Of a stretch of DNA of 64,000 nucleotides, positions 9,207 to 51,804 are shown piece by piece. The first letter of the stretch is position 1. Each line of letters starts with the position of its first letter. Source of the DNA: Blasia pusilla (Eukaryota); assembly GCA_050084515.1 (NCBI GenBank), contig CM114271.1:41726001-41790000 (forward strand). The letters run 5' to 3'. Under the pieces are notes generated by a model. The model searched no databases. It saw only the letters and a program-made list of their open reading frames with translations, and was not told the DNA's origin. A program made the position numbers and the translations under genes.

Positions 9207-9452
9207 GTGGATACTTCCGATCGAAACTGATTGCTGCAGCAGTGCGGAAAGTGGAGTTCTACTTCGCATTGAGTTGGGGAGGTTGGATTGCCTAGTTTTC
9301 AACCGGCGGGAGCGAGACATTGCCACTGTAATTGGAAAATAAAGGTCAGGAGACGGCACTTCGGAGGTGTTAGGAGACCCGCAATTCTATCGGGAAGTGT
9401 TCCCATCGTCTGGCGGAAGCAATATTGAGGTATATTATTATCCGGTGCAGCT

Positions 9453-11678
9453 ATGTTGGGGGGGCTCGCATCACCTTTGCTCGACGTGGACCAGATTCCA
9501 GGACCCGCTCCGGAACTGGCAGCAGCCACTAACGGTTGGACTGTGCAATTGTGTGTGACTCCCATGGAGAAGACGGATGCTAATGTGAACGTCCAGGACC
9601 CGCTGTTCTGGGCGAGAGCTGCCAGGCTTATGGAGAATAGTCACTTGGACGAAGTGAAGAACATGGTGCGCGAATTCCTGCAGTCGAAGGAGGTGGCGAT
9701 TCAGGGTGTATCCCTATCCGTCGCCCAGGTTGCAGCTGTGGCTCGCAACCCGGACGTGATCGTGGTGCTGGATGCCGCTACCGCGAAGGGTAGAGTGGAC
9801 GAGAGCAGCAATTGGGTGCAGGTGAACGTGATGAAGGGGACTGATACGTACGGAGTCACGACGGGATTCGGGGCTACTTCTCACCGCCGCACAACTCAGG
9901 GAGCTGACCTGCAGCGCGAGCTCATCCGCTTCCTGAATGCTGGAGTCCTGGGCAAGGATGTGCCAATCTTGCCTGTCGACACCACCCGAGCTGCGATGTT
10001 GATTAGGACCAACACATTGATGCAGGGCTATTCTGGCATTCGATGGGAGATACTTCAGACCATGCAGAGGCTTCTCAACAAGCACATCACTCCGCAGCTT
10101 CCGCTGAGGGGGACTGTCACCGCTTCGGGAGATCTCGTTCCACTTTCTTACATCGCAGGTTTGATCACCGGGAGACCGAACTCCAGAGCAGTGGATGCGT
10201 GCGGCAAGGTGCTGACTTCGCAAGAAGCTCTGAATCACGTGGGTCTTGTGAAGCCTTTCGAATTGCAGCCCAAGGAAGGGATCGCTATGGTCAATGGAAC
10301 GTCTGTTGGCGCTGCACAGGCTTCAATGGCATGCTATGACGCCAACATTCTTGCGCTATTCGCCGAAATCTCGTCCGCATTGTTCTGCGAGACGATGCAG
10401 GGCAAGCCTGAGTTCACCGATCACCTCACTCACAAGCTTAAGCATCACCCGGGGCAGATTGAGGCCGCCGCTATCATGGAATATGTGCTAGAAGGGAGCG
10501 CATACATGAAAGCCGCAGCTAAGCTGCACGAGACCGATCCTCTGAAGAAACCCAAGCAGGACAGGTACGCTCTTCGCACTTCCCCACAATGGCTGGGGCC
10601 ACAAATTGAAGTCATCCGCGCGGCCACCCACTCTATCGAGAGGGAGATCAACTCCGTGAACGACAATCCGCTCATCGATGTGTCCAGGGACAAGGCTCTG
10701 CACGGAGGCAACTTCCAGGGGACACCTATCGGAGTGTCGATGGACAACATGCGCCTCGCTCTCGCTGCCATTGGCAAGCTCATGTTTGCCCAGCTCTCCG
10801 AGCTCGTCAACGATTACTACAACGGAGGGCTACCTTCGAACCTGACTGGAGGACCCAATCCTAGTCTGGACTACGGGTTCAAGGGAGCGGAGATCGCCAT
10901 GGCTTCTTACTGTTCCGAAATGCAGTACCTTGCAAACCCAGTGACGTCTCATGTGCAGAGCGCAGAGCAGCACAACCAGGACGTGAACTCTCTGGGGCTG
11001 ATTTCAGCCCGCATGACTGCCGAAGCCATAGAGATTTTGAAGCTCATGTCATCGACATTCATGGTGGCTCTCTGCCAGGCAGTGGATCTCCGGCATTTGG
11101 AAGAGAACATGCTGACGAGTGTGAAGCACGTGGTTTCCACGGCTGCAAAGAAGACGCTCTTCATGGGGCCAGACGGAGTGCTCTTGCCGTCTCGATTTTG
11201 CGAGAAAGACCTTCTCAAGGTGGTCGATGATACACCTCCGTTCACATACGTCGATGATGCCACCAGTGCAACGTATCCTTTGATGGAGAAGCTGAGGCAA
11301 GTGCTGGTGGATCATGCCCTCGGGAACACCAAGGGCGACGAGGGTTGCTCTATTTTCTACCAGATCTCCGCCTTCGAGGAGGAGGTGAAAGCTCAGCTAG
11401 AAGCCACCGTGCCTCTTGTGAGAGAACAGTTCGACAAGGGTGTCACCGCAGTGCCTAACAAGATCACCGACTGCCGCACTTTCCACGTCTACAATTTCGT
11501 GCGATCTCTGGGCACGAAGCTCCTCGTCGGCACCGGGACGAGGTCGCCCGGGGAAGACATTCAGCTGGTTTACGAGGCCATCACCGCGGGCAATTTGGCC
11601 GATCCACTTTTGAAATGCTTGGATGGTTGGACAGGAACTCCGAGTCCTATCACTTCCTGCATCGATATTGTAGTTTGA
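9453..11678 (+). CDS. PAL: Phenylalanine ammonia-lyase, intronless, 741 aa
   Basis: Uninterrupted ORF with [20 protein letters not shown]-forming [45 protein letters not shown] and [21 protein letters not shown] has Phe at the Phe/His switch, so PAL rather than bifunctional PTAL. Confidence 0.98.
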
Positions 11679-13979: not shown

Positions 13980-14834
13980 TTAGTAAGATGCCCGTGCGAT
14001 GCATAGGTATGTAAATTTTTTTTAGGAAATTAATTTTATAAATAATTGAAAATTAAAATTTTCTATTTTTTTCAAATATCTTCATTTTCTCATTTAAAAA
14101 AGGAGTAATTTATTTCATGTAAGAATTTCCTTATAGACTACATTCCGGGTGTAATCATCTTTCTCATTCGAGTGTGTATAATTTCCAATCATAATATGAA
14201 CTGAACTCTTTTGTCCTACTCTAGACAATGCTACATATAGTTGGCCATGAGAAAATACAGGCGAAGGTAAGTAAATTACAACCTTTTGCAAAGTCTGACC
14301 TTGCGATTTATTAATAGTCATGGCAAAAGCATGATGAATAGGGAATTGCAATCTACGCAAATCAAATGGCATGCCCGAGTCAGAAGCAATCAATGGGATA
14401 CGCGGAATGAAAACTCGACCTCCAATATTTCTCCTTGTAATAATTTCAGCATCTATAATATGTTGCATGAATCCACAAATGATCAATCGAGTGTCATTCG
14501 CTTGTCCTCTTGTACCGTTCATGTTTCGTAGAAGCATGATCGATGCACCAACCTTCAAACACAAACGATGTGGGGGTAGTCCAAAAGGTAAGCATGTATT
14601 CAAGAATTCAGTTGGATAGATATAATTCATTCCCTTGTTTGGAACAGTTTCAACGTTAAGGAGTCAACCTTCTTGCCCCTACATAGCATGGGAGTTAACA
14701 TTATTATGTGCTTACCTCTCTTCTATTTTAACTCCCTAAAATGGCACATGTCAACATCAGAGGAGTCCTCAGAGGACATGTGTCAACTACTAGAGGAAGG
14801 ATTTTGCAAACTTATTCTCTCTCAATAGTATAGA
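13980..14834 (-). mobile_element. Internally deleted Helitron retaining the PIF1 helicase C-terminus
   Basis: ORF 14115-14630 has GLPPHRLCLKVG..MLLRN, RLQFP..AFAMTINKSQGQTL, VFSHGQLYVALSRV and TRNVVYKEIL. 5' end A|TCTATACTATT at 14834. 3' hairpin CCTATGCATCGCACGGG then CTAA|T at 13980. Confidence 0.9.
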
Positions 14835-32785: not shown

Positions 32786-34662
32786 TGGAGTGTCAGTATG
32801 ATGATATCGATGGGTAGTCCACGTATGTTGATGGGAGGATCCATTTGTTGTGCGAGGAGATGGTTGTGTTGCGGGGTTGCCGAGCCATATGGAGGAGTGA
32901 GTGTTGATGGAGCAGTTGATTGGCGGGAGTATTCACGTTACCCATTCGAGTCCCTTTTCCCGCACTTGTCTCGTGTCAATGAGGGTGCTGGGTTGGGAAA
33001 TAGCACATGCTAGATGGGTTCACTTATGGTGAAGAGTGTAGATTTCTTTCATATTTAGCATGTTTGTACGGCGGTTGCCGAGTAGGGGTCGAGTGTATGA
33101 CCCAAGAGTATGTTGGAAATTAGGTGAGATAGTCGGGAGGCTCGGGGTGAGCCCGGTGTTGAGTGTGTGTGAGACCGGGTGTGTCATCACGGAGTTACCA
33201 TTAGCATAGGTGTGCTAGTGAGGATCACGAGAGACTCTTGGTGAGTCTAAGTGTTTGAGCGAGTGAGACAAGATGATCATCATGGCGTTCTTCTAGGGTT
33301 GGAAAGAACGGGGTAGTTTGAGCAGTAGTGGTGGTGTGACATGGAGTGGGATGAGTTATCGAGGGATTTTTAGTGAGGAGCCACCTCAACTTCCATCTGT
33401 AGTTGGATCGTCATCACCATACAACCGGTCTGGTGACAAGATCGTAGACGAAGGCAATGTCACTTGGCAGGAGATGGACGACATGAGCCATCGGGGCATA
33501 CATTGTTTCTCGGGTGTAGGGCACCATCGACTTAGATGACTTCATCCATGAATTTTACACGTGGTAGGACTTCAAGGAGATACAGACCCCGACACGGTTC
33601 AACCCTTTGATGGCATGGAAGGGGTGGTTCCAACACTTGGAGGGTCCTTCGATGGATGATTACATGGATTTTTTATCGCTCTGTTTAGTAGAGATCGATG
33701 CCTGGAGGATGTATTGGGCTCCACGGTATGTATCCACTAGTGGTCGCAAGGCATACTATGAAATCGTGAGAGGAGAGAGATCCTCACTATCAACCCGGAG
33801 ACTAGATGGAGAGGACAACAGTAGTACAGGCAATGTGGCCGAGACCTCCGGTGGTAGAGGGCCACCCATCTTCAGTCCCACAATAGAGTTCTTCCGACAG
33901 TTGGGGAAGAGCTACCAGGGCGTATGCACCGACAAGCTAAAGAGTCTACAGGATTTTCAACGGCAATCGGGTGAGAGTATGAGAGATGCATTCACACGCA
34001 TGAGGAGGTTGATCATTGCTACTTATGGAGTGATTGAGGCATAGTCAATCCAATATTTGTGCGGGCTTCTGGACCAAGACCTACGGAGGAGGGTCCGAGA
34101 TGTGGTGTTGATTCACACAGCAAAGCCCACATTGAAGGTGGTTTTTGAGTTGTCTGAGCGTATTGAGCTCAACATGAGTGAGGAGCATATAGTGAATACT
34201 ATATTTTCCCCAGAGTCGACGGGTTCACGATTGATGGTTACCCCACAGGTGCCACATCGAGCACCTGTACCACGGGAGTCGGCTAGTGTGCCTAGAGAGC
34301 AAGGCGGGTACCATGAGCCTGTGAGGCAACGATTCGTGCATACGTATGTTGCCCAGCAGGGACCGATGATGTCTTGTTGGACGTGTGGTGGGCCTCATAG
34401 GTAGAGAGATTGCCCACAGCATAGGAGAGGATCCATAGGGGATGGCCCCGCCACAGTATCAATGTGACTATTGCCACAGATGTGGTCACCCTAGGGATAG
34501 ATGTTTTGACCTTCATCGAGAGACACGTTCACAGTAAGGTTGAGGACTTGGGGGTGGTCGTCTTGGAAGAGACCGAGGAGGTGTTGCTTGACGTAGTGGT
34601 AGAGGATCACCACCCACCACATGAGATGGAGCGGGAGCACCAAAGTCGGCACTTCTCTCACG

Positions 34663-35165: not shown

Positions 35166-37704
35166 CAAAGAAAGAATGAGTGAGTGAGAGAGCTTCATGG
35201 GATAGCTCGCTGGTCACTCGCTGGTTTTGTAGGTTGGGGATTGTATTCCCCGTTCAGCGGTTCATGGGAGTGCTCACCAGAGCAAGAGCCGCTTACTTGT
35301 GATGTTTCCTTTGCCGATTTTTCGTGTGGAAGAGTGGCGCGCGGAAGCGTTGCCCAATTTTTTATAGGGATTGAGTATGGGGGCAGGTTGCCCCATGCCA
35401 ATGCTCTCGAAAGCACCATGTAGCTTGCTGATTTTTTTTCTCACATATTTTACATTTTCGTTGGGAGAAATCAGCGCGGAAGCGTTGCCAACTTTTGTGT
35501 AAGAGAAAGAGACATTGGGCTTTACAACAGTCCATGTCAATTTTTACTGGAATATCTGACTCCTTTTTTGATGCTATCATAGATCATGAAGCTTTGCACA
35601 CTGTACAACAACCGGTGTGCAATTTGGACTTGCGAGCAAAAAGTTATGGTTAATCTTGCAAAACTCCCATTGCGAGGTAATTTTTAGGGTTAAATTGTTC
35701 AAACCTTAAACCAGCCGCCGCGCCGTCATAGTCACCGTCAATGGTCAACGGTCAACCATCACCATCAATGGTCAACCGTCACCATCACCGTCAACAGTCC
35801 ACCATCCACCATCGGCCGTTGCCGTCGCCTAGTGCTACTCAGAGCCGCGTTCAGTCGTTGTCTACCCTTTGGTTGCCATTGCCTCCATTACGGAGTGGAG
35901 GGTCTTCCATGACTACCGTTGATTCTCTGACTTGCGCCGCCACCACGTACTTTGGTTTGGCCGCCACCGTCATCGCAATTTCGTCATCAACCAGTGATGG
36001 TAGATGACCTCCGGTTATGGTGTTTGAGTTTTCATTTCATGTTGCTATGTTGGGATTGGTAGTTGCTCAACGATGATCGAGTACTATGCTGTAACATCCG
36101 TAGCCGCAACGCGCCGCCGATTGCCGCACCCTGCCGCTTGTGGCTGCACCGCACTGTCTCGATCGTGGAGCCGCTCCTTCACTAAGGTGCAGAGCGTGTG
36201 AATTTCTGATTGAGGAGGATATGCCACCGAGTGCCGTGCCGTTCAGTGCCGCTAGTGCCACAACGGACCATTGGACCTACACCGCACATCGAGGAGGTTT
36301 GGGCAGCGTCAGTACGAGAGGAGTACAGCTTGCTGATTGGAGGAGTTGTCTTCACGACCGAGTTGGGGTCGAGATTTTTGCAGTTGGCGAGGAGCAACAT
36401 TGACATTATTGTCAGGTTATCCATTATGGTCTCTTACCCTACAAGTGTGAGGGATTTTCGGATATTGGGAAGTTGTTTGGGATATTGGGTTTTGTGTTGA
36501 TGCTAGGAGCATTGATGATGTATGGGTTTAAGATACATAGACCTGTTTGGGATGTCTAGAGTTGAGGATGGTTTGTCGATGAGACGATATATCGGTTGAT
36601 TTTCCGCACCACGCTGCTTGTTGCCGCACAACACACATCTCAGTGAGAGAGTGTAGATTGAATATCGCATGTTTAGTTTGAGTGATTGAGGGATTACTCA
36701 CAAGATTGAGAGTGATCATGTGAGAGGGGCACAAGGGCCATCACGACGTCCTTTTGGGATTTTGAGAGGCGAGGTAGTGGACCTGAGAGTAGCTCTGAAG
36801 GGTAACCGGAGTGGTGCAAGGTTTCGAGGGTTTCCACATAAGAGACCATCTCAATCTCCTTCTAAGTCATCTTCAGATGAGGGGGAGCATATAGAGGAGT
36901 GTGTTAGTGATCCACCATACACATTGAGTGGTCTTACCAGTTGGGCGTGCGAGATGGACAGGGGGTAGAGGACGCGAGGTTTTAGTCTTGTAGGCACTAT
37001 AGAGGGGGTGTACGGTAGGAGAGAGGTAGGAGAGAGGAAGAGAGGAGGGTCTCTTTAATAAAAAAGGGGCCAAATCTGCCTCCTCTCTTCAAAACTTTTT
37101 GACATATTTGAAATTTTGGTTTGCTTTCAAATTCATGAAATCTTTAGAAGAGAATAGGTAGTGGTCCACATTTGGGCCTTAAGAAACCTCCTTTTCTCAG
37201 GGGGCGAAAAACAAGTAGACATCATAAGACCACTACAAACATTTTTCCATCACTCTCCATGTGAGCCTAAGTTTCTTCACATTGCCTGTCTCTAGTCTCT
37301 GATGTGTGTGCGAGGGCTATTTTTTTTGGAGGACCATGGGCAAATAATGTGACCAGAAGTAGCAATCTCATCTCAATGAAAGGTTCAAATAAAGACCAAC
37401 TTTGTGAAATGTGAACATAGGAGACGACAATTAAACCAAAAAATTGTTAGCTTTCTGGAGTAAAGAGAAACTGATGTCCCTTCATTCGGATCCTAAATCT
37501 GATAAACCGAGAAGCTGCACCCCTCCCAACCCGTCAGAATTTTACAGGTTCCAACTCTTGCAACCCGTCCAAATCAGATGGCTTGCACCCCTTGCAAGCA
37601 AGCTCAACATAACAAAGGAAAGATTTTGAGAAGTGATTCCATTCCACCCTGCACCCACGAAAATTCAACTGTTTGGGAATCCGAAATGGCAATCCGACAG
37701 GTTA

Positions 37705-38797
37705 TAGGAATCCAGCACGTCTTAGAGAAGGAAAGAAGCCTAAGACTGGTTTGACGAAACTAGGGGAATGAGCCAAAAGTGAAGAAGCCCGTCACAATGC
37801 TTCAGAATTTGGTCTCCCAGGGAAAGAGTCCGATCACTCAAGCAGCCAACCTGTCGAAATCCGACAGCTTGCCTGGAAATGGTTGAAAAGTTGAAATGTT
37901 CAAAAAATGAAAAATTGCAACCCATCGGAATCCGATGGGGTGCAAAATTGTAATTCTGAATAGCTAGACGAACACAATCCACAAGTCCAAAAGAAATATT
38001 CAACAAACTTTTAAAAACACCATTATCGGTTGAAAAAATCTCGTCCTTTATTTCATCCGAAGGAATCTCGGAAATGTACATTTGATCTAGTCTATGATTT
38101 CTTCAGCCTCGTCATCTACAAATTTACTCCTAACTCTCCTAGGTTCCTATACAAAAGGAATGTCCTAGGATATAAGTGGCTCCTCTGGCCGATTGTAGAC
38201 GGGGATCGAAAATGTTGGCGAATTCGAGAGCCTTGGCCCTCCCCTAGGTACACCATAACGGTCCCATGTAACCTAATTTGAGTTCCACCGCCTTCTTTGG
38301 CAGTATATCTTGTCCGCTCTGCAATGTGACACCCATCCAGTATCAATATGTGTTCCGTCCTTGGAAATACCATGATGGCAATCCCACATGTAGTAGGAAT
38401 CCAACATGTCTTAGAGAAGAGATGAAGCCTACGGCTTGTTTGACGATACTAGAAGAAGGTGCCAAAGTGAAGAAGCTTGCCAGAATGGCTGTAAAGAGTC
38501 CAAAAGAGTCCGATCACTCATGCAGCCAACTTATCGGAATTCGATAGGTTGCCTGGAAGTGGTTAAAAAGGTATAGTGATCAAAAAGTGAAAAGTTGCAA
38601 GCCGGGGAAATCCGGCGGGTTGCAAAATAGAAGCCCTCGGAGTACATATACTATCACATTTGACAAGACCAAAAAAGATATTCAACAAACTTTTACAAAC
38701 ACCATCATCGTTCGAAAAAATATTTTTCTTTATTACATCCGAAAGAAGCTCGGAACTGTACATTTGATCTATTCTATGAAATCTTTTGCCTCGTCAT
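37705..38797 (+). repeat. Diverged ~410-bp direct repeat (37705-38116 / 38395-38797)
   Basis: Shared blocks in the same order: AGGAATCCA..TCTTAGAGAAG, AAAGTGAAGAAGC, AGAGTCCGATCACTCA, TATTCAACAAACTTTTA, GCCTCGTCATC. Confidence 0.8.
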
Positions 38798-38854
38798 CAA
38801 ATAAATCCCTACTCCAAACGCTGTAGTCAAGTTGGGTCCTTGAGTTCTTTGAAC

Positions 38855-41800
38855 TCACTCGTCATCATCCGAGAGCTCTTCCAAGATTATTGTCAGCCTT
38901 GCCCTCCCGATTTTCAGAATCGTGGGAAGTGACGATTGTGTCCCTACCAATGGTGGGTCTGGAACCGGAGCTCTTGGCTTCAGAGGAGAGTTGTACGCCC
39001 TAACTAGCATGTCGTAATCTGCCTTTGCAAAGGTCAAACATTTGTTGCCTTCCCTCAAGGAAAAGAATATTCCTGCCACTCTGCCACGCGCCTCTGATAC
39101 TCGCTCCTGAAAGGCCCACTAAGTCGAACACCAAGTCACTCGGCCTTGAGCAGAGCTCGATTAGCGTTTGCATCAGGGCTGGCGACTTTTCTCTTCCTCC
39201 AAGTAAGGGGGTACCGTCTTGCATGTAAATTCTCGGGGGGGAATTGTATAAACTATCTAAGATGTATCCATCGGAGCATGGATCCATAGGATCCAGGATC
39301 TTAAACACCTGGAAGTTGTGCTTGGGCCGAACAAAGCAGTAAACATAGGAGTGGTACATCTGTAAAGAAGCACGCTGGAAACAATGTCAGCAACAAGAAA
39401 GAGCTACTTGGCCACTGGTCTACTCTCAGAATGGTGACATAATGTGCAACACGTTCCCAGAGAACTTCGCTGAACCCCAGTGAACTTCTTTATAATCCTA
39501 ACATTGGAGCAACCTGTCGGAGTCCGACGGGTTGTTTTACAAGTGTTAGTGATTTTTTTGTCCATGAGCAACCCGTTGGAAGGCGACAGGTTGCTGGCTT
39601 AGAGCATCCCATGGTTGGCTAAGAGCAACCTGTCGCTTTCCGACGGGTTGCATCATTCCAGAAACACAAGGAAAAAGCATGAGCACTTGCAACCCGTCGG
39701 GTTTCGACGGGTTGCATTCACCCAATGGAGACTTGCGGTAAATTTGCATTCGTCGCTTTCAGATGGATTGCACCACCGCCGTCTCCAGCTCAAACAATCC
39801 GACAGGTTGCATACAGAGATGCAACCCGTCGGAGAAAGAGAATTTGAATACAAATTTAGAGCCCTTACCCGAATTTGACTCGTCGCGGATCGGAGTGGGT
39901 ACTCGTTCTTGATGACCCACGATTGTGCCGTCCTCCACTTTAGCGACCTCTTAACGCATTGGAGGTTGAAGAGCTCATCCTCGCTCCTTCCAGTCAAAAC
40001 TAAGAAATAGCCCCTGTCACTGAGATAAGCGTCTACAAAGGAAAACAGGAGCGCGATCTGGTCATAAGAAAGAGGGGCATTCCAGTTTGGGATCCCGTCG
40101 GACGGATTCTCGTCCCACAAGCGCAACCCTGAGGGCAAATCAGCGTTGTCAATTTCTCGATGGCGGGTGTCGACGCTTGGGAATTGAAACTTTTCAGCTC
40201 ATCCAGAAGATTACTGCACTGAATGATGACGCTTGTCCGGGTCGTTGTTTCTCTATGTCTTCCCAAGGATGATGGAATGTATTCCACATCCTGGTTTGCT
40301 CCCAGGGACAACCCTGGCGCCTCTCGCTTCCGCTTCTCCCGAGTCTGCGGTCGGCTTGTTGGGGTCTCTATGACCTCAGACTCTAGTGGAGTTTTTTTTG
40401 CGGAGGACCTGGTCCCACCCTCTCTCCCCACTCGCCCGGACAATTCCGGCTCTCGCCTTGAATTTTCAGCTTCTCTTAGGGAAGACTCGGCCTTGGAATT
40501 CTTCAATCCCCTCGCCTTGGTTTTGAGATCTGTTGTAGATTTGTCCTTGGCGGTGACGACCTTGGACACCAACTCCGCTGTCTTGAGGGCTTGTTCCTCT
40601 GCATCTCCTTCGAAAAAGTCTTTAGGATGCACAAAATTGGGGATGTCGTCCCTACCTGCGGTCACTCCATCATAGAGAAGGCGTAGATCTTTCTTGGTTA
40701 CGTCCTCACGGTCGTTGAAGTCCAGCCACATCGGGAAATTCTCCACCTCCCAATCAGACATGCTTTGAGCCATCTCCATGTCGTACATGGAAAATGTCTC
40801 TCCATCAGGCGGAGAAGCCCACAATTTGCAAGTTGCCGGTATTTTTGCCGATTAAGCGCATTCTTACAATAGGCAGGTACCGAACACCATGCGTTAGGCT
40901 CTTAGTCGAGATGCATCGGCCGCCTGCTCCTGAAGATCTCGCTTCTTCTTTGCGAAATCCCTTTTTTCGCTTCTATTTCTTCGTCAAGGTCTGCATGAGG
41001 GAGGATGTGATCCTTGAACATCGTCCTGAAACCTGGGTTTTTAATGGGCTTGTCCCGCATGTCATCCAGCCAAAGTTCAAAATCTTCAGCATTCTCCAGG
41101 TTTACTTCCACCGGAACTGGCTCTATTCTTTTCAGCTCCGCTTGGAGACCCACGAGCATGGACTTTCCAAGAAGCCACAACGCATCCCAGAATGACCATT
41201 CACGGAGCCAGTGGGAGATCACTGGATCAGAGACACCCGGAGGATGGTGTGTTGCCCTCTTTTGGGCCTCTGTGCCCTCGAGACTGATTTTCATCAGTCG
41301 GATTCTCCTAAATTTTCTAACTCTAGACAAGGAAAATTGATGCACGCGATTGAGAGACACTTTCTCCCCAATCCGACCTTGCGGATCTTCATCCCTCTTC
41401 TGCTGGCGCTTGATTATCGCCTTCAGCTCCTTGTAGAAATCGGGGCCAAGTTCGGGGTTGAGAATGGTGATGTAGTGTTGCATCTTGCTTGCCGTGAACT
41501 TCGTTGATGCAGATATTGCAGCTTGGATGAACTTTGCACGCTCAGACACAGACACTTTCTCCCTCCGCTGTCGTATAGTAAAATCAACCAGTGTGTAAAC
41601 TCCTTCATCATTAAGTGTTAGAAAGAGTTTCATTAGTATTAAGTAAATTGGCTTAGAAAAAGGAGATTCTTAGGAGTGTCGGGAGAATCCGTGCAGATAG
41701 AGGTGAGTTGAATGCGGAGGAAGCACGAGAGTTCTTCAGGAGATATGGAGTCCAGTTGAGATTAACAACCTCCATGAATCCGGAGGCAAACGGCAAGAGC

Positions 41801-44027
41801 GAAAGGGGACATCCGCCAATCATTCAAGCATTGGTAAAGGCGTGTGGAGATCGTTATGCTGATTGGCCTAGATTACTTCCATTTGCTTTATGGGCAGATA
41901 GAACCACTCACAAAGACCGATTCGGGGTTCATGCCTCTGAGTTGATGACAGTCAAAAGCCGATAATGCCAAAGAGAAGGAGATATACCCACTTGGATGGG
42001 TTTGTCGTGGGAAGACGGGCTCAATAGGAAGAGCTCCTAACACTTGAATGCAAAGCAACTAGAGCGGGAAGAGGATATTGCGAAGCGTTAGTCAAAATGA
42101 AGGAAGCAAGGTTGAAAAATAAGGAGCGCTGACAAAACTCATCGACTTCGGAAGGAGCCGATAAGAGAAGGAGATTGGGTCTTGGTGCACGACAATGCCT
42201 TGACAACCAAAGATAGTACAATTAAGAAGTTTGCACGTCGTTGGTTTGGTCCATATGTTGTAGTCTTTGCTTTTGACAATGCCACTTACAAACTACGTGA
42301 ACTAGATGGCACAATTCTCAAGTCATTTTGCCCATTGCAGGAAAAAGGGTCAAGATTTTCCGTGAGCGTGAAGGATTTCTTGATTTCGATTGAATGTGTC
42401 TAGAGGCACAACATAAGTAAGTCTATAGCAAGAAGTCTTGATGTTTTTGGGCACATACCTGGGAGGATGTGCAGGTTTGGAGGGGTGAATGTCGTATAGT
42501 AAAATCAACTGAAGTGTGTGTAAACTCCTTCGTCATTAAGTGTTAGATAGAGTTTCATTAGTATTAAGTAAATTGGCTTAGAAAAAGGAGATTCTTATGT
42601 TTAAACCTCTTTATGGTGCCTCTTTTATGCGGGCCCAACTTTAGGAAAAGGAGGTAATAAATAAAAGATGACTTTATAAAAGTAAAGTACTTGCTTTAAT
42701 GAAAAGCAAAAGTAGTCTTGGTTGGTGGCTAGGTTAGTTTGGGTAATTTGGAAAATATCATGTGGGTAAAAGAGGATATTTTGGAAGACATAAGAGGAAA
42801 TCTACTTGTGTCAAAATGTGATTGGCTAAGCCTTGAGAGGAAGCCATGTGGCACAAGATAAGATAAACTCTATTTCGTACTCTTGTGGATCCCTTGTGAG
42901 TATATAAAGAGGAGGGACCTTCAAGGGTTCATCACCTTCTATTCCACATCTTGAGTCTCTCGTGTCTCTCTTGAGTGTATGGCTTTGGGATTGCTTGCTC
43001 TTCCAATGAGAGTGGATCACCCCTCTTGGGAGAGTAACTTGATGATGGTCTATTCTTCTAGAGGTTTCTAGAGTGTGGTGTGTGTGTGTGGGGGGGGATG
43101 AGAGGTTTGTCACCGTAGAGGAGTTTAGTCATACTAAAATAGCGGATGTTTTGGCTTGTTACTTTCCCAATGAGAGTGGATTACCCCTCTTGGGAGAATA
43201 ACTCCGCCAAAACCCATTCTTGAGGAGAGTAGAGAATGTCTGTCAAGCATGGATAGGGGTGGAGCACAAGTTGTGCCCGACTTTCCTTTCCTCAATCCTT
43301 ACCATGTCAAGGTACTCTTTGTAGATAGGCATTGGTTGACTCGCTATTTAGTTTATCACTTTGGGGAGGCGTTCATGAACCTGGTCATGCAATCTCCAAC
43401 TCCGGTGATTCTTCCTATCGTCACATATGGAAGGACATGGGATTGTACTTTGTATGTCCTTATATAGCGATCCATGGATGTCAATAGGCCTGGTCAAGTA
43501 GGGTTTAACACTAGTTGTGCTATCTTCCTCGTGTACAAACGTAAAATAGTTTATAGGGATTTTATAGTTAAGAATTTCGGGGTCCGATGTTACGAAGAAG
43601 TGATCGCCTCGGCACTTCCATTTGTGATACCTATCGTGAGAGAATGGAGAGTGTACATCATAATTTTGTATTGAAAAAGGAGAACTTATTAGAGAGTTCA
43701 CCTTGCATTGACCGCATCTACCGCAGCTAGAAGGCCCGCCCTTGCTCGAAGAAAGATTCTCGACACGACACCGCTCCAGCTCCAATGCAACGCTCTTCTT
43801 GGCGGCCTATATCTTCGACCAGCAAAGGATTGTCACAGCTGCATCTTGGGAAATAAATTTATTTGCCCAAGTCTTTTTTTTTTATTTGAGCACCCTTTGC
43901 CAGCACCTCATTTACAAGGGCGTCGCCCAAGAACCCCTTGTACTCTGCCGGGTGTGTCGTTAGCACTTTCTTCACCCAATCGCAATCCTGGATCCAGTGG
44001 TGGGTGACATTCCCCTCCGATACAATC
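38855..44027 (-). pseudogene. Spliced, TE-associated gene with a C-terminal beta-class N4-cytosine/N6-adenine DNA methyltransferase domain and possible ParB-like N-terminus; disrupted by stops, frameshifts and an LTR insertion
   Basis: Motif IV-like ID..ADLPSG (~40130-40153), then REKSPALMQTLIELCSRPSDLVFDLVGLSGASIRGAWQSGRNILFLE (~39055-39195), resembling the N6_N4_Mtase tail. A phase-0 GT-AG intron (39360-39868) joins SQIR|MYHSY in frame. Confidence 0.7.
41569..43202 (+). mobile_element. Internally deleted Gypsy element (5' LTR stub, integrase fragment, PPT, 3' LTR) inserted in the amino-MTase gene
   Basis: TGTCGTATAGTAAAATCAAC starts both 41569 and 42490. Integrase NPEANGKSERGH..WPRLLPFALWADRTT and KKFARRWFGPY. 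PPT GGAGGGGTGAA precedes 42490. TSD TCCGC (41564-41568 / 43203-43207); removal restores GFWRREKV in frame. Confidence 0.85.
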
Positions 44028-44079
44028 CTACACATCCAAACTCAATATAAGAAATTTTGCAAGGTACATGGGTTCGTGC

Positions 44080-44790
44080 AACGTGTCAGACTCCGACAGG
44101 TCGTCACAGCTCATGGTTGGAATGGTAGCTACGAGCTAAATTTTGCAACCCATCGGAGTCCGAGGGATTGCATTCAGATTTGTGATTGCCTGGTTTCAAC
44201 CCGTCGGACTCCGACTTCGACCAGCAAAGGTTGTGCGCCTCTGTTGTCTTTGGACAAGAACAGGAAGTACCCGCGCAACCCGTCGGAGACTGGTGGGTTG
44301 CACTCTTCCCTCATCTTGGGATAACAAAGGCGGGCTTCCCGCGGAACTTGTCGGAGGCCGACAGGTTGCACGCTTCCTTCATGTAAGCCTTACAAGGCGA
44401 GGCACTTGCGTAACCCGTCTGAGGTCAACGGGTTGCGCGCCTCCGCCGTCTTTGGGCAAGAAGGTGCGGCACCCGCGCAACTCGTCGAAAAGAGACGCGT
44501 TGCACGCTTCCTTAATATAAGTGTTACAAGGTGAGGCGATTGCGCAACCCATCTGAGGCCGACGGGTTGTGCGCCTCCGCCATCTTTGGGCAAGAAGGTG
44601 TGGTAACCGCGCAATTCGTCAGAGAGCAACGGGTTGCACGCTTCCTTCATGTTAGCATTACAAGGTGAGGCAGAAGGGTGCAACCCATCTGAAGCCGACG
44701 GGTCGCACGCTTTTCTTATCTTGGGTTAATAGGCGAGGTACCGGGGCAACCCGTCGGTTATCGACAGGTTGCACGCTTTTCTATCCCTTG
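44080..44790. repeat. Array of TGCAACCCGTCGG / CCGACGGGTTGCA paired motifs (also at ~37500-37945 and ~39500-39835)
   Basis: The motif recurs many times in both orientations, e.g. palindrome 39688-39716. Higher-order ~134-bp period at 44448/44582. Confidence 0.85.
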
Positions 44791-44794
44791 GGTA

Positions 44795-46605
44795 ATGTCC
44801 ATCTCCTGCCAAGTGATACTGCCTCCGTTTGCGATCTCGTCACCAGACCCGATGTCAAGTGATGACGATCCAATCACGGATGGATGTTGAGGTAGCTCCT
44901 CACTCGTAACCCCTCGGTATCTCTGTCCACTCCGTGTCACACCACTTCTACTACTCGCTCTACCCCGTTCTTCCGAATCCTGGAAGAATGCCGTGATGAC
45001 AACCCTGTCTCACCCGCTCAAGCACTCAGACTCACCGAGAGTCTCCCACACTCCTCACTAGCTCACCTTTGCTAACGTCAATCCCATGATGACACACCCG
45101 GCCTCACGCACACTCAACACTCGGGCTCACCATAAGCCTCCCAACTGACTCACCTAACCTAGAGACACTCTCGGATCAAACATGCGACCCCAACGCGACA
45201 ACCGCCGTATATCCACCAACATGCTACATATGAAAAGAGTCTACACTCGTCACCATCAGTGCACCCAACTAGCACCAACTACTACTTGATACCCAACACT
45301 CTCAATCACACACGACAAGTGCAGGAAAAGGGACTCGAATGGGTAACATGATCACGCCCTCCAACCTATGCACCGTCAACACTCAGTCCTCCATGTGGTA
45401 CGACAACCTCCGCAACACAACACTCTCCTCAACCAACACGTCGAGCCTCCCGTCAATAGATGCGGACGACCCATTGGCATCAGTGGATGTGTCTCCAATA
45501 CTACCACTCCGTCAAAACACTCTCCACCAAAACACTCGCAAATCTTAGTCATGCCCGAAAAATATTACGTTCGGAAAAATCTGCCCGCCTAACCCCAAAT
45601 GTGCCTGGCAACCTCAACTCAACCCCGTCCGCACTCAACCATGTTAGACCATCTATCACGTCATCCGCGCCTCTACCACATCAACCTTACATGACTACGT
45701 CCATCTCACTAACCACGTCTGGTGTGTACCACATTGGGACGTTGCCAACCATGGCGCTCCCAACCACGTTATGGGGGGGGGGGGAGATGCGCCTCTGGCT
45801 TCTGCCTCCGTGACCTAATCCTAGCCTCCGCAACCTAAACCGCATCCGTGACCCCGCCGCCTCTACCTCCGCGACCTTTCCTTCTTACTCTTTCCTGATA
45901 CACCCGCTTGCGTATACTCGACGCCACACCGCACGCTATACCTGACTACTGTCCCCCGTCAATCAGCACCAAGAAAATCTTAGAAAAATGGGCAGCGCTT
46001 CCATCCACAACCTTTGCGTGGAAAAAATGACAAACACAATGCCAACCAGGGTCTCCACGGGCTCCCCACAAAGGCAACTCGCTTGCCTACCTGCAAACAA
46101 CGAATTCCCACCAGCCCCCTAACGTCTTTTTGATGTAAAAATAAAGACTAGTAAAAATGGCACACCTGGCCTAAAACTCCACTCCTCAATCTACATCGGC
46201 ATATCGAGCCTCATCCACCCTCTGCTATTAAGGAATCCGGACGCTAGCACCCTATCTCACACACATACAAGAGAGGTGCTCCAATAGCCCAACATGAGAA
46301 ATATGGCTTGAGAAAGCCATCTTCCTCCTTTATATAGGGTTGGGAAGAGCCAAAAGGCTCTTCCCCTAAAAATAGTTATCCTCTTGGTAACTTGCACGCA
46401 TAGGTTACTAGGAGCGGGTGACCTAGTCAACAAGTCATCCGATTGTGAAAGACCTCAACAGGAAAGTTGTCAGACGTTTCTGACACAATGGACCTATCCT
46501 CAAACTCATCCGACACCATGGGATAAAGTTACACTCAAGATAGTCCACTAACTTTTACACCCTATCCACGATAGATCTCGGCCTATCGGCTACTCAGATT
46601 TGACA
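44795..46605 (-). mobile_element. Truncated antisense copy of the 30266 retrotransposon family (terminal repeat, leader, gag start)
   Basis: Minus strand begins TGTCAAATCTGAGTAGCCGATAGG at 46605 (cf. 30266). 44795-45500 is homologous to the reverse complement of ~32790-33480 (TRSG..YRG..SEE.PQ.PSV.GSSS). Confidence 0.85.
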
Positions 46606-50869: not shown

Positions 50870-51804
50870 GAGGAGGGTGTTAGGGTGTTAGATCTCTTTG
50901 TAGGGATTAGTACCGGATTGGGAGCAGTCCTATAGGCAGGCATACGGGTGCATCAGTACCTTTATGTGGAGAGAGATGAGACCAGCCGGCAAGAATCATT
51001 ACGTCACATAGCGAGATTGGTCCAGAGGTATCTTGAGTTGTTGGCAATATCTGCAATACGGGAATATCGGCATACACTACCCACCGACATTTCTTTGGTG
51101 GGGGCGCACAATCTTGATAGAGCTGGCATCATTCATTTGGTGATTGCTGGATGGCCACCATTCATCAGTTGGCCGAGGTTTGGATTGGAAGATCCGAGGT
51201 CAAGGATGTTTTGGGAGATGTTGCGAGTAGTGCGACACTTGCAGGAGACTCAGAATTGTTCTTCGACGTACATTTTGGGGAAGGTATTGTTGTTGGGAGA
51301 CACTCATACACATGTGTTTATGAGTGTGCATCAGGTGAGGTCCAATTTTGGACGTGCTGTGCTGTTAGATGCAGCGAGAGTTGGATCATGCGACCACCAT
51401 CCACGATTGTGGTGGACAAACCTAATACCATCAAGGTACTGAGTCGAGCACACGATGAAGTCTAGAGAGCACCACATCTCATAATGGGTGCTATTTTGGG
51501 CTCAAGGCGTTGATCTCAGGAGGTGACGCGGGATGATAGACCACTTTTGGCAATGGCCAATAGATTGGGGAAGTTGAGGGCAGCCTTAACTACGTTGGTG
51601 AGCTTCCCAGCATCCCATGGCTTTTGTGAGGGAGGGCTAGGCATGATTTGGGATGAGGTGATCCAAGCATTTGAGGAGCCTACAATAGATGAGCGTAAGC
51701 ATGCCATGGGGTTCGCTATGGGTACTACAGCGATGCCAAGTATGACGGAGGCATCACGGAGACATGTGTTGGGGCAGGAAATGGACCTCAACTGTCTCAC
51801 ATAG
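50870..51804 (+). pseudogene. Retrotransposon-encoded DNMT3-like C5-cytosine methyltransferase domain (degenerate)
   Basis: Motifs in canonical order: I RVLDLFVGISTG, II YLYVERD, IV HLVIAGWP(P) then GLEDPRSRMFWE, VI YILGKV (ENV degenerate), VIII LLDAARVGS..HPRLWWTNL, IX-X ERKHAMGF..T..SRRHVLGQEMDLNCL. In-frame stop at 50933; catalytic Cys absent. Confidence 0.85.

Follow-up and report, generated by a model that had tools for sequence, protein, structure and literature searches.

A broken copy of a repeated, probably methyltransferase-like gene family in the liverwort Blasia pusilla

The gene, its extent and its defects

A gene on the minus strand of a 64,000-nucleotide stretch of the Blasia pusilla genome (assembly GCA_050084515.1, contig CM114271.1, positions 41,726,001 to 41,790,000; the whole stretch is called the window below, and its first letter is position 1) is probably a pseudogenised copy of a repeated, divergent class-beta methyltransferase-like family that is so far known only from liverworts. 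From the reading of open reading frames (ORFs) and from tblastn with Riccia proteins, the gene spans about 41568 to 39000 and is larger than the interval 40160-38855, in which an earlier note on this DNA had placed an intron-containing DNA methyltransferase carried by mobile DNA. The 5′ limit of that interval was arbitrary, homology to Riccia extending upstream to 41489, and its 3′ limit was wrong, because the frame stops at 39000-39002 and 38855-38999 sits in a different frame behind this stop.

Three blocks of the gene are colinear on the minus strand with a protein of Riccia sorocarpa (P0002). In tblastn its residues 30-145 correspond to 41489-41130 (E = 4.6e-13), and the resemblance can be followed by eye to about 40915; this N-terminal block matches no Pfam family. 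Residues 222-325 correspond to 40842-40549 (E = 0.001), after which come a linker rich in K, R and E and then ...SVIIQCSN, and the third block lies at 40141-39866 (E = 5.3e-12). The exon-1 frame (40198-39869) reads ...HREIDNADLPSGLRLWDENPSDGIPNWN... and, ending in ...PLRSATSQIR, runs directly into GTAAGG at 39868, and the exon-2 frame, which opens after TTTACAG at 39360, reads MYHSYVYCFVRPK...REKSPALMQTLIELCSRPSDLVFDLVGLSGASIRGAWQSGRNILFLEGRQQMFDLCKGRLRHAS down to the stop.

Between the two exons, a clean phase-0 intron had been proposed at 39360-39868. A GT at 39867-39868, an AG at 39360-39361, a length of 509 nt and phase 0 are indeed present, and P0001, a second relative from Riccia fluitans, and P0002 run 5 and 20 residues past the end of exon 1 and then stop. 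Two things only, the canonical splice signals and the ends of the Riccia proteins, thus define the position of this putative intron. It is not clean in content, as it holds eight of the 17 hairpin motifs of the window as well as a foldback element. One genomic and three RNA sequencing runs were mapped to 38830-42480, 6-12% of each RNA run being read. The splice support that might have been expected from the RNA runs was not obtained: no RNA joint across 39360-39868 was reported in the three runs, and the intron is therefore without RNA support.

In this copy each of the three homologous blocks is in a frame of its own. An in-frame TAA (40902-40904) closes the first block, and no GT..AG pair that could serve for splicing occurs in the short gap before the second; a reading of the frame changes as introns was rejected because no such pair fits the short gaps. 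The 5′ end of the gene is cut between 41568 and 41569, where it abuts the start of a high-copy long terminal repeat (LTR), TGTCGTATAG. With an in-frame stop, two frame changes, a non-conserved strand before the DLPS motif and a 5′ end truncated by an LTR retroelement, this copy cannot make the protein and, as read from its sequence, is a pseudogene. Paralogs at least 95% alike appear to share the frame changes, because none of the 12 listed indel rows (of 13) from the DNA run falls within the gene. A 5-nt duplication at 40141-40145, carried by 9 DNA reads, was also considered; it would break the DLPS frame, not restore it, and was taken as just another variant.

Table 1. Features in and around the gene (positions in the window)
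Feature	Position	Strand	Basis
N-terminal block, domain of unknown function	40905..41568	-	ORF 40902..41669; tblastn to P0002
In-frame TAA closing the N-terminal block	40902..40904	-	Sequence read directly
Middle block, second frame	40202..40851	-	ORF 40033..40851; tblastn to P0002
Zone of the change from second to third frame	40172..40198	-	AAAA run; TGA just upstream in exon-1 frame
Exon 1, part of the methyltransferase-like domain	39869..40198	-	phmmer, Riccia relatives
Putative phase-0 GT..AG intron, 509 nt	39360..39868	-	Donor CGG/GTAAGG, acceptor TTTACAG/A
Exon 2: short variable region, then AdoMet-binding half	39003..39359	-	Profile and homology searches
EKSPALMQ...DLVGLSGAS...LFLE (motif X, motif I, beta-2 glutamate region)	39054..39191	-	Ungapped alignment to M1.HpyAVI
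High-copy palindromic (foldback, MITE-like) element in the intron, 213 bp	39504..39716		Loose read ends, self-inverted match, fold
Tandem pair of ~685-bp units immediately 3′ of the gene; 77% alike, containing hairpin motifs	37686..38822
67-bp-period array of the hairpin motif (GCAACCCGTCGG...CCGACGGGTTGC)	44229..44793
LTR-retroelement piece cutting the 5′ end of the gene	41569..42597	+	Direct repeat 92.6%
AdoMet, S-adenosylmethionine; MITE, miniature inverted-repeat transposable element.

Relationship of the two exons to amino-methyltransferases

The stretch resembling N6_N4_Mtase that had been noticed earlier (EKSPALMQ...NILFLE, 39054-39191) is present, and exon 2, which contains it, matches DNA methyltransferase models in several libraries. 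In Pfam it matches a single family, PF01555 or N6_N4_Mtase (E = 0.0048, profile positions 165-215 of 221), although its 17.3 bits lie below the curated gathering cut-off of 26.7 bits, and exon 1 has no match to this profile at E<=1. The five PHROGs families matched by exon 2 are all annotated as (DNA) methyltransferase (E = 7.8e-5, 6.5e-4, 8.6e-4, 0.07 and 0.075), and NCBIfam gives one DNA methyltransferase subfamily (E = 0.056). All four PDB sequences found by phmmer at E<=10 are class-beta enzymes, with M1.HpyAVI/DpnA (5hfj, 5hek) at E = 0.021 and M.RsrI at E = 0.26. A tblastn search of 50,697 phage records yielded 284 records at E<=10 (best 3e-3); among the 15 matches listed, 12 lie under DNA methylase or methyltransferase genes, two under hypothetical proteins and one is unannotated, and three matched phage genes are strong members of PF01555 (E about 1e-42). 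In the Atlas protein-language-model search PF01555 appears in 30 of the 30 clusters listed (top score 0.95, 182 shared features). Word-based protein searches with exon 2 returned nothing at E<=0.01 among 48 candidates ('longer') and 1 ('near'), and Pfam at E<=1 gave no methyltransferase family besides PF01555, and no Dam-type family, for the five ORF blocks. The exon-2 scores are individually weak and all in agreement, converging on the same C-terminal 60 residues (57-116), and these comparisons point clearly to descent of exon 2 from the AdoMet-binding half of PF01555-type class-beta DNA amino-methyltransferases.

In the phmmer alignment, exon 2 pairs without gaps with residues 170-229 of M1.HpyAVI. 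This enzyme has D29 in its DPPY motif, F195-M-G-S-G199 and, at the end of beta-2, E216, and loss of the motif IV Asp or of the beta-2 Glu abolishes its AdoMet binding (PMC5173035). Its D193-P-F195-M-G-S-G199 is in register with D-L-V-G-L-S-G of exon 2; motif I of this copy is V-G-L-S-G, not F-x-G-x-G, and the last Gly alone is kept. The E of ILFLE pairs with E216, and the beta-2 acidic residue that contacts the AdoMet ribose is thereby kept.

Exon 1 contains DLPS at 40130-40141, followed by LRLWDENPSDGIPNWN with W..P.WN ending at 40079; the fuller pattern LW...P.WN occupies 40079-40120 and is followed by ...W.I.N..P.R. An exhaustive phmmer search of exon 1 against 1.84 billion protein representatives gave three matches at E<=0.001. 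Two of them are P0001 (E = 2.5e-7) and P0002 (E = 2.9e-7), each annotated "hypothetical protein"; the third, P0003 (E = 1.2e-4), is a 1496-residue repeat protein and was taken as spurious. The DLPS and W..P.WN motifs reported earlier on the minus strand are thus present and shared with the Riccia proteins beyond chance. In a three-way alignment (A1), P0001 and P0002 are 33-34% identical to exon 1, and the invariant columns are D-L-P, L-W, N, P-W-N and W..I.N..P.R. The fourth residue after DLP, S here, is K and T in Riccia (DLPS, DLPK, DLPT). Because DLP is invariant in all three aligned members, DLPx is a family trait and not, as had been suggested, decay of this copy.

In class-beta enzymes motif IV comes first, then a variable region and then motif I, and motif IV follows the consensus (D/N/S)-P-P-(Y/F/W), whose aromatic residue stacks on the target base (PMC7544214); SPPY, DPPY, NPPY and DPPW occur in known enzymes (PMC8885841). 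DLPS, DLPK and DLPT do not conform to this consensus. In Riccia a hydrophobic stretch precedes DLP (IDLLLM-DLPT and IDAMIV-DLPK), comparable to IDLIATDPPY of a phage enzyme, and in place of this stretch the Blasia copy has polar residues or a four-residue gap (EIDN-ADLPS). From the D of DLPS to the position of F195 there are 171 residues in the spliced product, and from D29 to F195 there are 166 in M1.HpyAVI. It is plausible that DLPS sits where motif IV belongs, by an argument from position and not from a statistical test; exon 1 is a real conserved coding region, the identity of which as the other half of a methyltransferase is likewise plausible by position only. An Atlas search with P0002, which lacks exon 2, gave clusters of amino-methyltransferases (TRM11/UPF0020/N6_N4_Mtase) at 0.85, a score at which the result is a lead and not a test. 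In a word-based protein search P0002 found itself as the sole match, and a metagenome scan with alignment A1 produced 161 pattern matches, none of which was confirmed.

Copies, transcripts and surrounding repeats

Of 1995 DNA reads mapped to the locus, 292 agree with the window at 99% or more and the other 1703 at 95-99%. The summed DNA depth ranges from 1.1 to 72 across the bins of the gene, and at many sites two letters stand side by side. These observations suggest ten or more paralogs, a copy number obtained without a single-copy calibrator and from read differences some of which could be differences between strains; the paralogs envisaged in the earlier note are thus indicated by the reads, their number being loosely fixed. 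Among 145 listed places, 68 have A/T in the window and G/C in the reads and 32 have the opposite, an excess that fits deamination decay of a silenced copy. Among the listed variants, six of 12 are synonymous in the two methyltransferase-like exons vs three of 12 in the upstream blocks, and this small, tool-selected sample hints faintly at present or past selection on some paralogs.

RNA depth is zero over 39440-40781 in all three runs. Over exon 2 there are RNA traces with a depth of up to 4.3, in which the first mate always lies on the + strand, i.e. in sense to the gene; these traces come from another copy, because the reads differ from the window at 39192.

The LTR piece at the 5′ end of the gene opens with an LTR start (41569-41672, TGTCGTATAG), continues with part of an integrase C-terminus and a polypurine tract (41673-42489), and closes with a second copy of the LTR start (42490-42597), the 104 bases of the first recurring at 42490. 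The integrase fragment matches SH3_Tf2-1 (E = 0.0012). DNA depth over this piece is about 200 and RNA depth is 100-250 from the + strand, opposite to the gene, the stretch 41514-42480 being strongly transcribed; the family of this internally deleted LTR retroelement is active or was so recently. The integrase and RNase H genes nearby are parts of other, Ty3-type elements and also lie on the strand opposite to the gene. No terminal repeats, target duplication or transposase bounding the methyltransferase-like gene were found in the window. The placement of the gene inside mobile DNA therefore holds in so far as the region is repeat-rich and the gene looks multi-copy; as no element ends were found, this placement is inferred from the copy number of the gene and from its neighbours.

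Two inverted stretches of about 680 bp (32802-33479 and 45482-44797), which are 78% alike, enclose gag-like ORFs, the hairpin repeats and the methyltransferase-like gene. They could be the two ends of a single large element, although they look like LTR pieces of two. At 45662 there is a candidate LTR end that has a matching 5-mer and is not relied on here.

The motif GCAACCCGTCGG, with one mismatch allowed, occurs 17 times vs 0.09 expected in the window: eight times in the intron, twice in the tandem 685-bp units 3′ of the gene and seven times in the 67-bp-period array. It forms part of a short hairpin family, in which GCAACCCGTCGG is followed after a few bases by CCGACGGGTTGC, at 37500-39850 and 44140-44800; an Rfam scan of 37000-45500 found no family. 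The foldback element in the intron is marked by loose DNA-read ends at 39504 (95 reads) and 39716 (66 reads), has a depth of 39-72 and folds into one long hairpin (-101.3 kcal/mol, z = -10.8).

Elsewhere in the window, an uninterrupted, intronless frame of 749 residues at 9429-11678 (+) reads, by sequence reading only, like phenylalanine ammonia-lyase, and 14115-14663 (-) encodes part of a Pif1-type helicase (Pif1_2B_dom, E = 5.5e-14) of the sort that occurs in Helitron-like elements. An ORF at 50936-51442 (+), located between Ty3-type integrase genes, reads ...IAGWPPFISWPRFGLEDPRSRMFWEMLRVV. Both PDB sequences that it matches at E<=1 are M.HaeIII, in the region of the PPC motif (E = 0.3), with the Cys replaced by Phe; Pfam gives no DNA_methylase match at E<=0.01. 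Judged from these residues, it may be a decayed relic of the 'Gypsy-DNMT3' type.

Interpretation and comparison with known systems

The family to which the Blasia gene probably belongs would, to judge from the Riccia relatives, encode in its intact form a tripartite protein of some 600-700 residues, in which a linker rich in K, R and E would join a domain of unknown function at the N-terminus to a C-terminal domain resembling a permuted class-beta amino-methyltransferase. The C-terminal domain would be split by one phase-0 intron, and its AdoMet-binding half would be recognisable, with the beta-2 glutamate and the Asp of the catalytic loop kept. Canonical DNA methylation by such a family seems unlikely; because the catalytic motif is altered across the family, its proteins are probably not active DNA-methylating enzymes, and if they act at all, they may do so as a non-catalytic binding or partner module, as MettL14 does. 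The role as a writer of N4-methylcytosine (4mC) or N6-methyladenine (6mA), or as a reservoir of such writers, that the earlier note had imagined is speculation.

Several results weigh against the methyltransferase-like reading of the whole domain, in addition to the sub-cut-off Pfam score, the limits on copy number and on the synonymous share, and the RNA silence and missing splice joint given above. First, no Pfam methyltransferase is matched by exon 1 (E<=1), P0001 or P0002, no PHROGs or NCBIfam methyltransferase is matched by exon 1, the profile of alignment A1 retrieves no methyltransferase from the PDB at E<=10, and BLASTP of P0001 and P0002 against the phage enzyme gives nothing below E = 1. 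Second, hhalign of the exon-1 family against three phage enzymes, of which the N-terminal halves were taken, gave a score that 39 of 150 column shuffles equalled or exceeded. The motif order from which class beta was deduced earlier (DLPS before motif I) and the spacing of 171 vs 166 residues fit that class, and the score that would tie DLPS to motif IV is no better than that of shuffles. Third, motif I can be read in this copy alone, as the Riccia proteins end before exon 2. Fourth, AlphaFold2 models of each exon alone have a mean predicted local distance difference test (pLDDT) of 42.5 and 38.4, values too low to support a search by fold, and a two-chain complex prediction of exon 1 with exon 2, made without controls, scored 0.30 vs a mark of 0.34.

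These results bear directly on a second explanation, according to which methyltransferase ancestry is limited to the C-terminal exon, an AdoMet-binding fragment that was captured or fused, and the likeness of DLPS to DPPY is coincidental. Every sequence-based methyltransferase test of exon 1 and of the Riccia proteins was negative, as this explanation would have it, and hhalign of the joined domain against full phage enzymes, which reports a probability of 94%, has confident columns only at about residues 166-229. However, the spacing from DLPS to motif I agrees with that of M1.HpyAVI, the Riccia proteins have a hydrophobic strand before DLP as in ...DLIATDPPY of phage, and the Atlas search with P0002 leads, as a lead only, to amino-methyltransferases. 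We regard a captured fragment as rather unlikely.

That the family is an active, transposon-carried DNA amino-methyltransferase (a 4mC/6mA writer), whose intact paralogs are functional and for which DLPx is a workable variant of motif IV, appears less likely still and is doubtful. The motif IV Asp and the beta-2 Glu are both present; DLP and its flanking residues are invariant in all three members at about 33% overall identity, from which selection on that loop could be argued; half of the 12 listed domain variants are synonymous; and a paralog leaves sense-strand RNA traces of exon 2. Against these stand the missing second proline and the missing aromatic residue that would stack on the target base, the fourth position being S, K or T, as well as the replacement of one FxGxG glycine in this copy and the failure of any methyltransferase model to recognise the catalytic half. 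In addition, the copy in the window is defective, and its frame changes coincide with none of the 12 indel rows listed for the paralogs (at least 95% alike). A chance resemblance, with no methyltransferase ancestry and no real gene, would suit the modest exon-2 scores (Pfam below cut-off, PDB at E = 0.02), but it is most improbable when five libraries or methods agree on the family and on the C-terminal 60 residues, and when counterparts of exon 1 and of the upstream blocks occur, in unchanged order, in two other species.

A broken member of a repeated, divergent, methyltransferase-like family thus remains the reading that we prefer, and, with two annotated members only, both "hypothetical protein", this family lends itself to a genome-wide count and to a test of activity. 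Liverworts are, to our knowledge, the only plant lineage known to have a bacterial-type 4mC writer. The present family would be a second and far more divergent family of the same superfamily, located in liverwort repeated DNA and with its catalytic loop changed in a conserved way, and it raises the questions of whether there were several acquisitions of such modules and whether some of them now serve as binders or partners without catalysis. The copy in this window, being dead, can give no answer. A bolder proposal, to which we give little credence, is that intact paralogs are nuclear proteins on a liverwort repeat, the DLPx domain of which binds AdoMet and either methylates through a non-canonical loop or partners a DN4MT1-type writer. 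If true, land plants would have their first PF01555-type module associated with repeated DNA, one that might be linked to how liverwort 4mC arose or is controlled; our literature search found no paper linking PF01555 to a land-plant repeat.

Among known systems, the small class-beta enzymes (M1.HpyAVI, 5HFJ/5HEK; M.RsrI, 1EG2; phage phrog_3008, phrog_6952 and phrog_67) share with the Blasia gene the order of motifs, an ungapped match to the last 60 residues of M1.HpyAVI, a similar spacing (171 vs 166) and both the motif IV Asp and the beta-2 Glu. The Blasia gene differs from them in its DLPx motif IV, its VGLSG motif I, a catalytic half that the profiles tried do not recognise, a long eukaryotic N-terminal extension, an intron and a sub-cut-off Pfam score.

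Two horizontally acquired eukaryotic 4mC writers belong to the same superfamily (class beta, PF01555). MpDN4MT1a/b of Marchantia, likewise a liverwort, are described as 4mC enzymes of class beta, the products of the two genes Mp6g18330 and Mp6g18340 (Marchantia preprint), and N4CMT of bdelloid rotifers is an active enzyme with a canonical SPPY, the change of which to APPA abolishes its activity (PMC8885841), whereas the present family has DLPS in this copy. MpDN4MT1a/b and N4CMT are single or duplicated host genes, unlike the repeated family of Blasia. The kinship to these 4mC writers suggested in the earlier note is not close: the exhaustive exon-1 search retrieved neither MpDN4MT1 nor N4CMT, and none of its three matches in all was a methyltransferase.

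Eroded forms of motif IV that are kept in evolution have been described for MettL14 (EPPL) and ciliate MTA9, which are non-catalytic class-beta subunits (PMC7544214). They resemble the present family in having a class-beta-like domain with a conserved non-canonical motif IV, but differ in being members of the MT-A70 branch whose active partner is known. DNA-methyltransferase-like modules in repeated DNA are likewise represented by Gypsy-DNMT3 and by the DAM domains of DIRS and LTR elements; the 2026 DAM-retrotransposon preprint mentions Gypsy-DNMT3 for streptophytes, describes an Asn-Pro-Pro catalytic triplet in DAM domains and gives DAM-LTRs as absent from Streptophyta. The same window holds, about 10 kb from the gene, a Ty3-type element with what may be a C5-methyltransferase-like relic. 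DAM domains are of a different family and lie inside retrotransposon polyproteins, whereas the methyltransferase-like gene of Blasia contains no reverse transcriptase or recombinase and, unlike polyprotein-borne DAM domains, lies on the strand opposite to the flanking retroelement genes.

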